From positions 64,001 to 128,000 of IMG/VR virus record IMGVR_UViG_3300028920_002946: 64,000 nucleotides of DNA; one strand, 5' to 3'. Below the pieces are notes generated by a model. That model saw only the letters and a program-made list of their open reading frames with translations. It had not been told where the DNA came from and searched no databases. Of this stretch, positions 13,506 through 62,853 are shown piece by piece (the first letter of the stretch is position 1; every line of letters starts with the position of its first letter). This stretch comes from a virus. A program made the position numbers and the translations under genes.

Positions 13506-13577
13506 TAATATTAGTTAATATTAAAACGGCTGCCATCGGCATCCGACGGTGCAAAACTAATATTAGTTAATATTAAA
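13506..13577. repeat. 20-bp AT-rich direct repeat (x2), each made of two TAATATTA palindromes
   Basis: taatattagttaatattaaa at 13506-13525 and 13558-13577. Confidence 0.9.
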
Positions 13578-14133
13578 TCAGAGACAGGTCCACATCACAG
13601 TCAATCTCGTCACCCCACACATCCCATCCGACAGACTTCTGCCTAGCGAACAGCTCTATTCGCGGAACATCGCCGCAAACATCAACAATCTTTCCCCGTA
13701 TGTCATCAGGCTTTTTAGAATGACCGCCTCTTTGATGCATAAACACATTAGGAATTCTACTCACGGTATCAACCGTAAACCTTCCTCGAGTACCAAACAG
13801 AATATGCTCAGTCGCACCCCTGAAATAAAATCCCATGCCATTGTTAATGACATTTCCTTGCTTATCAACCTTCACCCAGGTAAGAGTTGTTTTGTAACTG
13901 AATCCCCAAGCACTCATAACCTCAAAACCATACACTATCTTAGGATTCGTAACCCACAGAAAAAGGGCGCTGTTGTCGTCCGCTATCTCCGAAACAGGTA
14001 GCCGACAGATCTTCTCAACCGTCATCGTACCGTAATGGGCCTGCGGATTTCCCCCACGAGCGGCTTTTCTCCGCTTCTTCATCTTACCGTAATCCCAAGG
14101 GGGGTCGGCGTAAATAACGCTATACCTCTTCAC
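13573..14133 (-). CDS. MT-A70 family adenine methyltransferase
   Basis: 'YSVIYADPPW', 'ALFLWVT', 'FYFRGATEHILFG', 'HSKKP', 'RIELFAR...GWDVWG'; GTGA overlap with the upstream stop; markedly AT-rich. Confidence 0.9.
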   Translation of the reverse strand: MKRYSVIYADPPWDYGKMKKRRKAARGGNPQAHYGTMTVEKICRLPVSEIADDNSALFLWVTNPKIVYGFEVMSAWGFSYKTTLTWVKVDKQGNVINNGMGFYFRGATEHILFGTRGRFTVDTVSRIPNVFMHQRGGHSKKPDDIRGKIVDVCGDVPRIELFARQKSVGWDVWGDEIDCDVDLSLI

Positions 14134-17100
14134 CCCTTGAACTTCTCGATCCACCCGTCCGCGATCTTCTCCCACGAGTACTCCTTCATCTTCGCCTGCG
14201 CCTTGTCAGCCCACTCTCTTCGATAGTTGGCATCCGTGAGTAGCTTGATCGACTCCTCCACAAATCTATCCGTGTACTCCTTCGGATAGTCGGCGTCCAT
14301 GGGCAGGCCGTCGCCCGGAATGAGTATCCCGGACGGCCCAACGGTCGTCTTGAGGCCCGCGCGGTCGGTGGAGAGTATCGCATTGTGGGACAGGCCGTTC
14401 TCGACGGCGCCTATGCAAAATGTCTCGTCAAACCAACAGGGATAAAGCCAGACGTTGGCCCTCTTCTGATGCTCCGCCAATGTGGCCTTGTCGATGCGAT
14501 CAAGATACTCGACGCCCGGCTGCTCCATCGCCGCCTTGATCTTCTGGATGAAAGCCATGCCCCTCTGGTCGTTCCTGCGCTTCACGGCCGACTCCCAGTT
14601 GTAGAAGCCGTAGGCCACCTTCAGCTTGAAGTCCGGGACGGCCTTCCGTATCTCCGGCATCATCTGCAGCAGCTGATACAGGCCCCTGTCCGGACTCGAC
14701 GAATACACGGAGCAGTTCTCCTTCGCGGAGTCGTCGACGTCATTGTACAGATCCTGCACGACGCCGTTGGCGGTGAGGAACATCTTCTCGGGCGGCAGCT
14801 GCTTGTGGTGGCCGCAGAGGAACTCCTTGTGCCAATCGGAGAGGTAGGCGTACCCCTGCACCTTCCACGCCATCACATCGTAGTTGGGGTCGGGGTTCAG
14901 CCATATGTCGTGCACCATGACGTAGTTGCGCCCGCTGTGCAAACTCTGCCTCATGGGCTCGCAGCTACGGGACGATATGAAGTAGTCGATGTAAAGGTAC
15001 TGTATGTCCTCCATCATCTTCGTGTGATCCACGTACCGCACGGCGCCGTAATCGACGCCCCCCTCGACGACCGGGTCGAGGGCCACATCGTCCTTCGAGT
15101 CGGCGAGGAGGTCGTTGTAGACGGTGGCCTCGTAGCCCTTCCTCACGAACGCGCGCGCGAGGTACGCGGCCCACGTCTCCGACCCCGCCATCCCCTCGTC
15201 CACCCTCCGGCGGTTCCACGGCTCCCACGCGGGTCCCGTCCAGATGGCGATGCGCTTCCTCTCCCACTTCCGCTTGAGCATGACATGGTTCTCGCGGTCC
15301 TCGGCGTCGTAGCTCTCGCGGTCCTCGTCCTGGTAGGCGCCGCGGCTCACGCCCCCGAAGTGGAACACGAAGGAGCCGATCGACTGCCCGCACGCGAACC
15401 CGGCCTTCCCAAGCCGCATGCACAGGTCGAGATCCTCGCAGCCGTTCTTGAACCGGGTGTCGAACAGCCCAACCTCGTTGATGGCGCTGCGCGCGAATAT
15501 GGTGGCGTAGGCCGCGACCCACTCCTGCGGCTGGAAGATGTCCCTGTGCCTCCTGTTGGAGGCCTCCATGAACTCGTACAGCTCGTCGATGTGCGGGGTG
15601 ATCTCCTCCAGCTTCATGCCGGGGTGCAGCTCGACCCCCGCCCTCTCCAGGCGCATCGGGTAGGTCGGCTTCCCCGGGGCGCCGTGAAGCCATGACCTGT
15701 CGCAGTTCGACAGGACGCCGCAGGACGCCAGCCGGTGCACGGTTTCCATGTGCCTGACCATGTTGCCGAGCCAGCCCTTGGACACGACGACGTCGGAGTT
15801 CATGATGACGAAGAACTTGCTGCGCGAACTGCGTACCCCCGCGTTGCAGGCCTCCGAGAAGGTCTTTCGGGCCCCCTCCTCGCCGAGGACCGTTATCCCC
15901 TTCAGCGTCCTCAGATACTCCCACACCTCCGGCCCGCTCCCCGCGTCGCTGACGACGATGTGGAACGGGTGCACCGTGTTGAGGCGTATGGAACTGAGGC
16001 ACAGCTTGAGGTACTCGAGGTTGTTGTAGTTCGGGATCACGAGGTCGACGACATCCCGCGCCTTCTCCACGCTCGCGGGTGCCTCCGCGTGCTCCAGCCT
16101 GATGGTGCCATTCACGAGGCTGTCGAAGAGGTTGATGTAGTTCTGGACGTTGTTCTCGAGCCTGTAGGGGGCGACCGACCTCTTCGCGGCCTTGCCCACC
16201 CGGCGTCGCTCGCCCACGTCCCCCAGCTTGCGGAGGGCCTCGCCCCACTCCTCCTTCGTCTCGGCGATGAAGCCGTTCTCGCCGTGGGCGATGATCTCCT
16301 TGTAGGCCTGCAGCGGGCTCGCGATGACGGGCATCCCGAAGGCCATGGCGGTCGTCGCCTTCACGCTGCTCTTGCCGGGCTGCACGTCGACCCTCTGCGG
16401 GCAGAGGGCCACGTCGCAGGCGGCGAGGTCGTCCGGCCACGTGTCCGGGTCCCACTTGATGTCGGCGTTGTCCCACTCGGAGATCACCACCAGGTCGTAT
16501 CCGGCCGACTCGATGGTGTCCCGGAGGTGGTCGGTGACGAGGAAGGAGTTGCCGCCCATCCCCATGAACACGGCCTTCGGCCTCTCCCCCTTGATCTCCT
16601 TGTATTGGTGGGGCTTCCGCGGTTCGCGCTCCTCGACGCTGTCCTTGAGCACGACCGTGTGCAGGAACCCCCGCTCCCGCGTCATCTCCGCCAGCTTCGT
16701 CGAGCAGCAGAGGATGGCGTCGGCCTCGTGCATGCACTCGTCCTCGAGGGGGAACCCGAAGATGCCCTCGCAGTGGTCGAAGCATATCCTGCGGTTCTTG
16801 GCCTTCATGGCCCGCATCAAGTCCAGTTCGGCGGGGCCAAAGCTCGTGAACACGACGACGTTCGCCGTGCCGACGGCCTCCTCGACATCCTCCGCCGACA
16901 TGTTCTGGTACCCCACCACCCTGCGGCTCTCCACCCTCTTGCCCCGAAGCTTCTCGTCGATGATGAGTCGACGCAGTCTCGTGGAGGGGTTGGTGGCGTC
17001 GTCGTTGGGCAGCAGCCACACGACGGACGTCTTGCGGTGCTTGCGCAGTCGAAGGTCGGCGTGCAGTCCGTTGTTGGCGAGCACCTCCACCATGAGATCG

Positions 17101-26351: not shown

Positions 26352-28946
26352 CTACCGGAACATACCCAGGAACGAGTCCCTCAAGCCCTTGTCCCGGGCG
26401 GCCGCGAAGAGACTCGCCTTGAGGTGCGCGTACGGTTTGCCCGCGTTGAAGAGGCGCTTCATCCTCGATGCAGGATTGCCTGTCGCACTTTCATAGGCGC
26501 CGAACCCCAACGCATCGCCCGCCAAATCGCAAGCATCAAAATACTCCCGTATCCTGTCGACGGGCTTCTTCACGACCCGCCCCGGCTTAAACCCGCACGA
26601 TTCAACGAACTTGTTCCATGAGCCGAATCTGCGCTCCAACACGTGTGCGGGCACGCCGTTGATGCCGTGCCCCTCATAATTGCCCCGTGCAAGCCCGATG
26701 GACGGCGCATTTTCCTTGAACCAACAAACCGCGCCGTCCAAGTCATACCTTTCACGGAAGACACGACGTCCCCTTCTTCTCCTCACCCCTCGAGGCGGGC
26801 GCTGTGTGTGCCTGTCAGGGGGCTCCCAAGTGATAGGGGGGGCCTCGTCAACCGAACAGAAGGACAGAATATCCTCATGGGCCCCGCCATTGAAGTTTCT
26901 GACAGGAACGGCAAACTTCTCAAACAGATGAAACCCCACAGACTTGCAGAGTCGTATGGTGTCCTCTATCAAAGGCGCGCAGGAGCGCTCCGAAAGACAC
27001 ACGGAGAACACCCCGCCGGGCGCAAGCGACCCTATGCAGTTGCGGACGGTGGGATCCCAATAACCCTCTATCCACCGCCGATAGTCGGGGAACTTCGCCA
27101 CACTCTGGGTGCTCTCGTCGCTGTACCTTTCGTAATCGAAGTACGGGGGGCTCGAGAAGGCGACGCTAAAGGCCCCGGGTTTGGGGCCGAAACCCTCCGA
27201 TCCGGATTTGACCACATCAAACCTCCCCCCGACCACGGGACGAAGAAACGACCCGAAGCGCTCCAAGTTGGAGGCCGTCTCCGAACAGGGTTCGACGCAC
27301 ACATAGTCCATGCCCAGAGACATGGCCCCGAGCATGCGGGACCCGTACCCGCCGCTGTAGTCCAGCACCCGCCCGTTGGCGCCATACCTGTAGAACACAA
27401 ACCTCGCCACGGAGGGCTTGAAATTGCTCACGCATAGCCGCATGGCCTTGAATCCCCTGCGCATCGAAGCCTCGCCCACGCGGTCCGCATGCTCAAGGCG
27501 GTTTCTGACATAGCCCCGCATGAAGGACTCGTCCCGCCACAAATCAACAGGCGAGGCGTGGCCCTTGCGGCTCGCGGAGTACATGTTCGGAAAAAAGCCC
27601 TCGCACAGTATCATGCCCGCCGAACTATGAGCCAAAACGCCCCCCTCGTCCCTGATAATCGATGAACGCTTGAAAGACGAAGCCAGATACTCGGCCCTCT
27701 TCGCGCTGAGGGACATATAGGGAAACGGTTTGCCCCAATATCTTCTGAACAGGGTGTCCTCCATCGCCGACTTCACGGGATCCGGGGACAGCCGATAGAA
27801 TTTCGGGCGCGGGTCGCCGACGAGCGCGGACACCCGGGCGACCTCCTCCGCGGACAGGAAATCCTCGGGTATCTTGTAGTACATGTCGGGGGTGGCGACC
27901 CCAAGCACGATGCGGAAAAAATCGCGGTAGTGGCTTTTCGACACTGTCACGTTATGGCCCGAAAGGGAAAACCCCCATCCGTATCTGTCCTCCAACCAAC
28001 CGACGAAGCGCTCAATCTGCGAGCGGTCGCCGCAGAAGTTGGCTATGGACATCTGCCTCCTCTCGTCGTCGTAACTGCCGTCGTCCAGGAACCAATAGCC
28101 CAAAATGCGGTCATCCCAATTCTCCTCGATGAACTTAAGAGGGACTGCCTTGCCCGGCACACCATCGGTGTAGAAGGCTTCTCGAAACTCCGCGAAAGCG
28201 GGATGCGTGACCGTATTAATTCTGAACTCATTTCTATCGTGATCCTTCATAATTCTATTTGAGTAGGGCTCAAGGGCAACCATCTTGCTTCTTAAGTAGT
28301 CTTTTTGTTTTGCCGAGTGAGTTTCATAATATCTCGGTGACCTGTCGATGCCGCCGTCGCCGAGGAGGCCCCCTATGATGAGGAAACGCTGCTCTTTGGT
28401 AAGAGCGGGATATTGACCCTGTCGCCAATCCTCCTTTGGCCCTATGCCCCTCTGACGTAGAACAGGAAGCCAAACGGTCTTCGACAACCCCACCTTCTCC
28501 GAAAAAGCGTCGTTCGTCATGGAGTGGTACATGGATCGCAATTCATCGGTCGACATGGAAACCAGACGTTCGGACGCGTTCCGCGTCTTTGAAAATTTGT
28601 CCGTAGCGAGCAGACCTATCCTTTTTCGTCGGTATGCCACACCCGGGCCTGTCAAGCCGAAACGACGCCCAATTTCCTCGTCGGAAAGTCCCTGCTCGCA
28701 AAATCCCTTGAGGACATCATCCGTCAATAGCTTTCTCAGCCCCTTTTTCTTGCCCGTGTACGCAACACGGACATCAGAGCGACCAACGCTCTTGGGGTTT
28801 GTGGGAATGCCGTATTTCCTCAAGAGCTTAAAAACGGCGTCCTCAGTCACTCCGACCAACGAACCTATCTCCCGGCACCGAAGACCGTGTGTGGAGTACA
28901 GCTGCCTAAGACTCTCTTCATCGAGTTTGTCAAACGAATAGTTCAT
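26352..28946 (-). CDS. HTH + LAGLIDADG endonuclease + amino-methyltransferase (SPPY) + homing-endonuclease-associated repeat fusion, copy 2
   Basis: 'LIIGGLLGDGGI' and 'GYWFLDDGS'; 'VLDYSGGYGSRMLG' and 'FSSPPYFDYERYS'; C-terminal 'LERRFGSWNKFVESCGFKP' repeat; start re-called to ATG 28946. Confidence 0.8.
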   Translation of the reverse strand: MNYSFDKLDEESLRQLYSTHGLRCREIGSLVGVTEDAVFKLLRKYGIPTNPKSVGRSDVRVAYTGKKKGLRKLLTDDVLKGFCEQGLSDEEIGRRFGLTGPGVAYRRKRIGLLATDKFSKTRNASERLVSMSTDELRSMYHSMTNDAFSEKVGLSKTVWLPVLRQRGIGPKEDWRQGQYPALTKEQRFLIIGGLLGDGGIDRSPRYYETHSAKQKDYLRSKMVALEPYSNRIMKDHDRNEFRINTVTHPAFAEFREAFYTDGVPGKAVPLKFIEENWDDRILGYWFLDDGSYDDERRQMSIANFCGDRSQIERFVGWLEDRYGWGFSLSGHNVTVSKSHYRDFFRIVLGVATPDMYYKIPEDFLSAEEVARVSALVGDPRPKFYRLSPDPVKSAMEDTLFRRYWGKPFPYMSLSAKRAEYLASSFKRSSIIRDEGGVLAHSSAGMILCEGFFPNMYSASRKGHASPVDLWRDESFMRGYVRNRLEHADRVGEASMRRGFKAMRLCVSNFKPSVARFVFYRYGANGRVLDYSGGYGSRMLGAMSLGMDYVCVEPCSETASNLERFGSFLRPVVGGRFDVVKSGSEGFGPKPGAFSVAFSSPPYFDYERYSDESTQSVAKFPDYRRWIEGYWDPTVRNCIGSLAPGGVFSVCLSERSCAPLIEDTIRLCKSVGFHLFEKFAVPVRNFNGGAHEDILSFCSVDEAPPITWEPPDRHTQRPPRGVRRRRGRRVFRERYDLDGAVCWFKENAPSIGLARGNYEGHGINGVPAHVLERRFGSWNKFVESCGFKPGRVVKKPVDRIREYFDACDLAGDALGFGAYESATGNPASRMKRLFNAGKPYAHLKASLFAAARDKGLRDSFLGMFR

Positions 28947-28953
28947 GATAGGT

Positions 28954-28982
28954 AATATAGCATTTGGAGATGCTACTGTCAA
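28954..28982 (-). promoter_or_regulatory. Sigma70-type promoter, leaderless, with overlapping inverted repeat
   Basis: TTGACA-N17-TATATT-N7-ATG; TAGCAT-N6-ATGCTA at 28958-28975. Confidence 0.75.
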
Positions 28983-29040
28983 TAGTTCTTTTCCCTATTT
29001 CCCAAATGCATATGTTTGCGCTAACGACCCTATAAGTAGA

Positions 29041-61857: not shown

Positions 61858-62853
61858 TCACGTAACACTTTGGTATCCCGCGGCCGCGAGGGCCCGGCGC
61901 ATGCCCGAAACCAGGAACCTGCTCCCCCCGAACACCACGAGCACGGACGGGAACGGGGCGCTGTTGCTCATGCCCCCGAACTTGAGCCGGCCCTTTATGT
62001 ATATGCGATATCCGTTAGAAGCGTACTCGTGCCACCACTTCGTGTCTGTACGTGAGGGTACAAGACAAACAACCATACATCCCTGCAAACTTTCCTCATA
62101 AGCTTTCTGCATCCACTTCACCACACTTCTACCATAAGGAGGATTAAGCCACAAGGATATCTTGTCCGTCATTAAAGATTTGATGAACCCGCCAAAAATG
62201 GGTATAATAGCGTTATGAACAACACAACCATCGCTTACTGCGCCGGGCTTTTCGATGGTGAGGGCTGTATTCACATCAAGAAAAGAATTTCCAAGGCCCC
62301 CAGCCGAAAAGAGAGGTCTCCCAACTACATGCTTACTGTCAAGCTGAAAATGGTGCACAAACCAACGATTGAACTGTTCAAGAAAGTATTCAAGGTTGGG
62401 ACAATAACATTCGAGAAACCTGGAAAGAACAACAAGCGCATTGCATGGAGATGGAATGTCGCCGCCCATGATGCCATCACAGTTCTCACAACAATGCGGC
62501 CCTACCTCAAAATCAAAGTCGGAGAAGTCGATACTGCCCTTGAATTCATCAAGATTAACACCAGATCCGTCTACGGAGTCAGAACCGTCCCTTCTCACAT
62601 CCTTGCTGAAAGAGAACGACTTTACCAGAAAATGCGCTTTCTCAAGAAATTCGAATGGAAAGTGCCTGTTTGCCAATGACCAACTACAAGACAACCCATC
62701 ATCTCGTTCTGTGTAATATCGGCCACATTTGGAGTTGTCGTGCGACGCGCAGACGTCGATGTCGAAGTGGCACACGGAGTCCACGGCCTTGTAGAAGTCA
62801 TCCGGGGTCTCCCACTCCGTGCTGTTGCTGCTGAACATGACCTTGGTGTCCAT
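61858..62853 (-). CDS. Phage Dam-type N6-adenine methyltransferase carrying an in-frame insert of about 170 codons
   Basis: 'EWETP', 'FDIDVCAS', 'DDGL..SW' [insert] 'WLNPPYG', 'LVPSRTDTKWW', 'GRLKF', 'APFPS'. Confidence 0.9.
   Translation of the reverse strand: MDTKVMFSSNSTEWETPDDFYKAVDSVCHFDIDVCASHDNSKCGRYYTERDDGLSCSWSLANRHFPFEFLEKAHFLVKSFSFSKDVRRDGSDSVDGSGVNLDEFKGSIDFSDFDFEVGPHCCENCDGIMGGDIPSPCNALVVLSRFLECYCPNLEYFLEQFNRWFVHHFQLDSKHVVGRPLFSAGGLGNSFLDVNTALTIEKPGAVSDGCVVHNAIIPIFGGFIKSLMTDKISLWLNPPYGRSVVKWMQKAYEESLQGCMVVCLVPSRTDTKWWHEYASNGYRIYIKGRLKFGGMSNSAPFPSVLVVFGGSRFLVSGMRRALAAAGYQSVT
62180..62208 (+). promoter_or_regulatory. Sigma70-type promoter of the antisense endonuclease, leaderless
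   Basis: TTGATG-N17-TATAAT-N6-ATG. Confidence 0.75.
62215..62679 (+). mobile_element. Single-motif LAGLIDADG homing endonuclease gene, antisense inside the Dam gene
   Basis: 'IAYCAGLFDGEGCIHI', 'LKMVHKPTIE', 'WRW', 'MRPYLKIK'; AT-rich. Confidence 0.9.

Follow-up and report, generated by a model that had tools for sequence, protein, structure and literature searches.

How can a phage methylase gene house a complete homing endonuclease gene on its opposite strand and still keep its own reading frame open? The locus that raises this question lies in a 64,000-nt window (positions 64,001 to 128,000 of the 182,677-nt IMG/VR virus record IMGVR_UViG_3300028920_002946; 62% GC genome). The same Dam protein is also present on a 463,769-nt ENA contig, so the source phage, with its GC content of about 62%, is of jumbo size. 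The host gene (61858..62853, minus strand) encodes a phage N6-adenine methyltransferase (Dam, PF05869/TIGR01712) in 331 codons that run from 62853 to 61858 without a stop, straight through the insert. The conserved N- and C-terminal motifs of the family are present, including NPPY. Both profile matches are split into two stretches, the Pfam Dam match at E 9e-21 and TIGR01712 at 66.5 bits (cut-off, 97).

The first-pass annotation had placed the break in Dam homology between two tryptophan codons, W58 (62680-62682) and the one that opens catalytic motif IV, W-L-N-P-P-Y (62134..62151, minus strand; first codon, 62149-62151). These positions are right, and 176 residues separate the two tryptophans. 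Its figure of five or six residues in insert-free homologs was slightly too high: the interval is mostly 4 (62 homologs) or 5 residues (28), with a range of 4-22 among the 110 scored, and it spans 4-9 residues at 72 viral Dam sites. The insert stretches this loop of Dam from 4-5 residues to 176. The resulting spacer (62152..62679, minus strand; 176 codons, about 171 of them extra) yielded no match in Pfam and NCBIfam comparisons, and no amino-acid constraint was detected in its peptide. On either side of it, the near-invariant residues of the Dam family are all retained. In the AlphaFold model, both halves have pLDDT values of 85-97 and the insert is mostly below 70; residues 7-327 superpose on N6-adenine MTases with Z up to 13.4 (about 143 residues, rmsd 2.5). 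Both halves are thereby predicted to form one N6-adenine MTase domain, a good fold that is partly built in, as insert-free homologs made up the alignment behind the model. A plain Foldseek search with the Dam model returned nothing at E 0.001 and only weaker N6-MTase matches. Natural insertions in Dam homologs reach 22 residues before NPPY and 67 after it, at the two sites that the cassettes described here also use; six homologs (P0026, P0050, P0084, P0090, P0111, and P0119) carry cysteine-rich inserts of 32-67 residues directly after NPPY.

On the other strand, the insert holds a single-motif LAGLIDADG endonuclease gene of 154 aa (62215..62679, plus strand), antisense to Dam and codon-in-register with it, whose TGA (62677-62679) adjoins the W58 codon as annotated. 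The protein matches LAGLIDADG_1 (E 7e-6; PF00961, 27.3 bits against a cut-off of 23.1). Its motif acid, E16, is invariant across 15 relatives, and E16 and K101 are both invariant within the subfamily. Foldseek with the nuclease model (pLDDT 88.8) retrieves I-CreI, I-CvuI, and I-MsoI (TM about 0.71, E 1e-7). With one motif, the catalytic acid, a length of about 150 aa, and this predicted fold, the protein would belong to the I-CreI type. Its 10 Leu codons are 5 CTT, 3 CTC, and 2 CTG, and TCA accounts for 0 of its 5 Ser codons, exactly as had been counted. The insert had also been described as AT-rich, which holds relative to the 62% GC genome and fails in absolute terms (46% GC).

As the first-pass annotation had proposed, the same cassette was sought in related phages, and it was found. 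In L001 (ENA ERZ27256810), a nuclease 62% identical to that of the window occupies the same Dam site; the antisense frame is stop-free through all 568 nt, reaching the NPPY motif of Dam, and differs from the window by indels of 15 nt and 3 nt, both in frame. L165 and L251 are one element in two assemblies. Their nuclease, 50% identical to that of the window, lies antisense within a complete 399-aa Dam at a second site, just after NPPYG, and the Dam gene of L251 stands in a different gene neighborhood. The Dam-embedded elements number only three distinct ones, two of them on short contigs. A quick tree places all three with the nuclease P0130 in one group (SH-aLRT, 99), within which the three are not resolved as a clade of their own. 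P0130 itself is free-standing (L166:2575-3371, JGI 3300066008), with no NPP motif upstream; by eye, it lies tail to tail with the 3' end of an apparent methylase ORF that has no Pfam match, and the antisense frame there is open for 248 codons.

Further searches extended this set little. Scanning IMG/VR with the single nuclease sequence gave no match, and alignment-based scans of IMG/VR, JGI metagenomes, and GTDB gave only relatives of at most 40% identity. DNA pattern scans for a nuclease plus NPPY or for the promoter motif returned two irrelevant matches and two blanks. No Dam with a long insert was found in cultured phages, whose nucleases are less than 35% identical, and Dam is absent from the gene lists around P0132 and P0133. 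Close insert-free alleles of the carriers' Dam genes, which have diverged, were not found in these searches. Among the IMG/VR and JGI loci, Dam occurs near a nuclease relative in L007 only, on the same strand. There (L007:1062-2075, IMG/VR 3300031873_000001), an intact Dam is followed by a free-standing LAGLIDADG gene of a different branch and then by a duplicated 3' piece of Dam, an ordinary adjacent arrangement.

Is the open Dam frame an accident? The 331-codon ORF is indeed free of stops and in register with the nuclease, as annotated. From its own third-position usage, the window nuclease should contain 3.7 antisense stops, and it contains none (P(0) = 0.014); taken alone, this gene offers moderate evidence for selected openness, the weight that the annotation had assigned. 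The nucleases of the two diverged relatives likewise have zero antisense stops (P of 0.0003 and 0.008, the three probabilities being partly dependent through shared ancestry). The avoidance of TTA, CTA, and TCA under synonymous change, which had been put forward as a test, is thus seen as 0 occurrences in the three nucleases against 14.6 expected (3.7 in the window; 6.8 and 4.1 in the relatives). Fourfold sites differ by 48-73% among the three elements. In the nuclease frame, dN is 0.33-0.56, against a dS that is saturated or close to 2; the nuclease is therefore under purifying selection, and enough time has passed for its synonymous sites to change. For the Dam frame, dN and dS are about equal, so the insert peptide behaves as a passenger of which only the openness is kept. 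The indels among the elements are all in frame, and neither stops nor frameshifts, which the annotation had named as counterevidence, interrupt the Dam frame in any of the three. Synonymous sites that are saturated and yet devoid of these three codons, together with in-frame indels, point to selection on the open frame, and we consider it well supported by these comparisons that selection holds the Dam frame open across the nuclease.

In-register frames on the opposite strand frequently lack stops, and the layout could nevertheless be due to chance, in a Dam gene that was merely disrupted recently. Antisense stops are lacking in 12 of 140 distinct nuclease relatives, including a few low-GC ones with no host gene found; three of the 12 are the elements' own clade. 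The free-standing P0130 is also without one (P 0.06), and relatives of 42-52% GC carry 5.3 on average. However, the frame is open in every one of the three copies inside Dam, which occupy two sites, and their junctions and indels all preserve it at saturated synonymous divergence. These sequence comparisons make chance, in our estimate, the least probable of the readings weighed here, and one already largely refuted. Four other LAGLIDADG relatives (L033, L067, L093, and L097; 31-42% GC) have zero antisense stops and frames open for 166-425 codons, with no recognizable host gene in the three tested; they are possibly other embedded elements or possibly a product of codon bias.

A frame kept stop-free by selection suggests that ribosomes probably continue through the insert when they translate the methylase. 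Against this stands the size of the loop: 171 residues of junk beside a catalytic motif far exceed the natural inserts and could abolish activity. Dam might then be dead and its frame open for another reason, with stops purged because an untranslated stretch would have polar effects on genes further down the operon. Indeed, Dam stands in a same-strand run with replication genes, with primase and DNA polymerase III gamma/tau genes downstream; phage orphan methylases are often dispensable (PMC11855218), and the insert peptide is unconstrained. Yet the near-invariant Dam residues are all kept inside the co-converted flanks described below, the LNPPYGR codons of the window and L001 differ by six synonymous and zero replacement changes, and L251 keeps a full Dam in another gene neighborhood. 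Insert-free alleles could, for their part, refresh the Dam flanks at each homing event. On balance, we judge a dead Dam with a polarity-driven open frame unlikely.

Alternatively, the insert could be removed by unrecognized protein splicing, by proteolysis, or, at the RNA level, by the splicing of a small intron of unknown type. Inteins are known to carry antisense LAGLIDADG genes in open frames (10.1101/2025.01.02.630785), and the junction regions of L251 can pair. Conversely, intein and Hint family searches with the insert gave no match, the insert ends differ among the three elements, the signature of a C/S start plus H-N then C/S/T is absent, and only about 23 codons of the insert are left over from the nuclease; an intein with an antisense nuclease was rejected on these grounds. 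An Rfam scan gave no intron match at E 5 and nothing relevant, about 70 nt of the insert lie outside the nuclease ORF, and junction pairing is at background level in the window and L001. Group I, group II, and bulge-helix-bulge introns were rejected accordingly (pairing in one of three elements), and the annotation's statement that there is neither room for a group I ribozyme nor any intein motif stands. Furthermore, RNA splicing needs no open frame. Removal of the insert is, in our view, very unlikely.

The annotation had also offered a C-terminal half restarted at ATG 62172 and a skipping of the insert in translation. A split or bypassed gene of this kind, with a restart or a ribosome hop, would have precedents in mobE in nrdA and T4 gene 60, and split host genes function in T4-like phages (PMC2988022); in the window, ATG 62172 is in frame 7 codons before the motif IV tryptophan. 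But no restart codon conserved among the three elements was found: L001 lacks an in-frame ATG, GTG, or TTG in the 40 codons before NPPY, and the insert of L251 lies at a different site, after NPPY. The N-terminal half has no terminating stop, and a split of the mobE/nrdA type was rejected. Skipping left no visible signal and would need no open frame; neither mechanism explains the stop avoidance. We rate a split or bypassed gene marginally lower than removal of the insert. Read-through into a tolerated loop is the one of the annotation's three options that the evidence favors.

Signs of homing come from codon usage in the host gene. Dam codons 1-41 (62731..62853, minus strand) show native phage usage (GC3, 40/41), as do codons 284-331 (61858..62004, minus strand; 37/40 for codons 284-323), and the neighboring genes have GC3 values of 0.87-0.92. 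Next to the insert, codons 42-58 (62680..62730, minus strand), which end at the invariant W58, and codons 230-283 (62005..62166, minus strand) form foreign, low-GC3 flanks (5/17 and 26/54). This sharp tract in both halves of Dam suggests that the cassette arrived with about 50 nt and about 165 nt of foreign dam, joined seamlessly. The GC3 pattern implies transfer, and from it we infer a co-conversion tract left by homing, co-conversion being a pattern of break-repair homing (PMC2988022). No target-site duplication longer than 5 nt was found at the insert.

What drives the nuclease gene, and what might it cut? A sigma70-like promoter, TTGATG-17-TATAAT, had been annotated at 62180..62208 (plus strand). 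The site is present; by itself it is no more than chance would give (1 found, 0.9 expected), and it gains weight because it is conserved in the relatives. In both the window and L001, 6 nt separate the end of the -10 box from the ATG, and L165 has a weaker box at the same spacing, which suggests that the nuclease transcript is leaderless. A terminator scan found none. Overlapping the -35 box and spacer, the sequence that codes for M-N-P-P in Dam recurs in inverted orientation (62183..62194, plus strand) and forms a putative operator. Its core, TGAAYCCVCCA, is common to the three elements, 18-19 nt before the -10 box (62184-62194 in the window), so that an 11-nt copy of NPP-coding dam sequence overlaps all three nuclease promoters. 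The motif reads as M/L-N-P-P codons and varies at wobble positions only; its phase in the Dam frame is not conserved. Scored against a profile of 74 insert-free Dam NPPY sites, the motif comes out as the top match within its element in all three cases, ahead of the element's own dam allele. The core occurs in 56 of these 74 sites and in 0 of 3 carriers' own alleles, and it was found upstream of none of 140 other nuclease relatives. Shuffling gave P values of 4e-4 to 1e-3 per element in a post hoc test.

Two other roles for the motif were rejected: that of a general phage promoter element (one exact copy in 182 kb) and that of a Shine-Dalgarno or restart signal in dam mRNA (no start codon follows in L001, and the phase differs in L165). 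By analogy with known autorepression, the motif is probably an operator that mimics the homing site and so points to the target, a reading made post hoc. At its simplest, NPPY-coding DNA would be the target, and the window's NPPY allele, which departs from the operator motif, a putative resistant allele carried along. An alternative is that the motif is a relic of inversion; an inverted repeat spans the junctions in L251, where a weaker NPPY-coding copy pairs with the Dam flank opposite. This second, weaker inverted copy lies at the insert junction (L251/L165:28-50).

At the level of sequence, then, an intact LAGLIDADG gene with a predicted promoter of its own sits antisense inside Dam, whose frame selection keeps open. 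We think it reasonably probable, if well short of certain, that this is a splicing-free homing cassette and that dam is read through it into a working methylase with a tolerated, unconstrained loop. The first-pass annotation's splicing-independent cassette in a selected open frame gains support from the two diverged homologs with the same layout and from the codon test. The nuclease, made from its leaderless antisense transcript, would act as an I-CreI-like homodimer and cut insert-free dam at or near the M-N-P-P-Y coding sequence in co-infecting phages. Break repair would copy the cassette together with donor dam flanks (about 17 and about 55 codons), including the resistant NPPY allele, and the nuclease would repress its own promoter by binding the target-mimicking operator. 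The dam mRNA would be read straight through, the roughly 171 extra residues forming a surface loop beside motif IV with which the methylase may retain at least some activity, and the cassette's only duties would be to avoid TTA, CTA, TCA, and frameshifts. A broader proposal, to which we give slightly less than even chances, is that this LAGLIDADG lineage has repeatedly and independently colonized Dam in antisense, before as well as after the catalytic motif, as a complete homing unit that regulates itself (with a leaderless promoter, an operator that mimics the target, and a resistant host allele), leaving the host enzyme active with a loop of 170 residues.

Parts of this arrangement are already published. 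The ShiLan domain is an HNH nuclease hidden in a stop-free insertion of actinophage DNA methylases with no intron or intein detected, for which loop read-through and leaderless translation have both been put forward as proposals (PMC11855218, PMC9957025). The window element works like ShiLan, as a nuclease hidden in a stop-free, in-frame phage methylase insertion with no splicing element, and is not a ShiLan domain. In ShiLan, the HNH gene (about 202 codons) runs along the host strand in another reading frame and is translated from the transcript of the host, whereas the window carries a single-motif LAGLIDADG gene on the opposite strand, in register, with its own predicted promoter, in a PF05869 Dam; its family, moreover, uses two sites flanking NPPY and has an operator-like target copy. 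Antisense or opposite-strand cases are not mentioned in PMC11855218. Some inteins harbor a LAGLIDADG or Vsr-like nuclease gene on the antisense strand, and the sense translation of that stretch is unstructured (10.1101/2025.01.02.630785, which cites Gorbalenya 1998 and Gogarten 2002 for antisense intein nucleases). They share with the window a LAGLIDADG gene antisense to an open host-protein frame, but their splicing domain removes the junk peptide, and the window insert has none.

Free-standing phage nucleases within genes, such as mobE in Aeh1 nrdA, mobA in T4 gene 60, and seg in gene 43 (PMC2988022), also reside in conserved host genes with neither intron nor intein and display co-conversion and marker exclusion; they split the host into two polypeptides on the same strand, unlike the continuous frame of the window. 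The putative operator is reminiscent of the autorepression of I-TevI/II/III, where the promoter of the nuclease gene is overlapped by a second version of the homing site (PMC2988022); the mechanism is demonstrated for the intron-encoded GIY-YIG enzyme I-TevI, and ours would concern a LAGLIDADG protein. Literature searches brought up no paper on LAGLIDADG operators of this target-mimicking kind. Finally, cluster F mycobacteriophage methylases contain a lone in-frame LAGLIDADG domain (PMC9957025), and DotProduct gp64, of this type, was matched in our cultured-phage search. They too combine a phage methylase with LAGLIDADG coding sequence in the absence of splicing elements, but as a protein domain fused in frame and apparently inherited vertically. 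The literature thus already contains nucleases concealed in stop-free stretches of phage methylases (PMC11855218) and LAGLIDADG genes that lie antisense to an open intein frame (10.1101/2025.01.02.630785); no paper on the antisense, splicing-free form was found in a literature search short on subscription journals.

What the present locus adds is population-genetic evidence, lacking in the ShiLan papers, for the active maintenance of an open host frame over an embedded nuclease gene. It also offers a natural example of complete two-strand overlap, with stop avoidance as the only constraint on one of the strands. With a probable target and operator named, one small gene suffices for testing homing, self-immunity, autorepression, and read-through. 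If our reading is correct, an active Dam with an antisense-encoded loop would be a third, splicing-free route by which a nuclease resides harmlessly in a gene. Gene calling on both longer contigs reported only the Dam frame; embedded elements are invisible to gene callers and are therefore likely under-counted.

Several other features of the phage were observed. Within the window, an MT-A70 family methyltransferase gene lies in a low-GC island (approximately 13576-14205, minus strand), and an 880-aa ORF (26355-28994, minus strand) combines repeated HTH-like segments with a LAGLIDADG_2 domain. Outside the window, ARAGORN predicts 23 tRNAs on G000:C1, including an ochre-suppressor-like tRNA with anticodon TTA (G000:C1:182322-182397) and a tRNA-Asp interrupted by an intron of 1,037 nt (G000:C1:56033-57170). 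A low-GC ORF (G000:C1:176248-176814), which by eye resembles a PD-(D/E)XK homing endonuclease, has a promoter-like site and ends at a tRNA-Asn.
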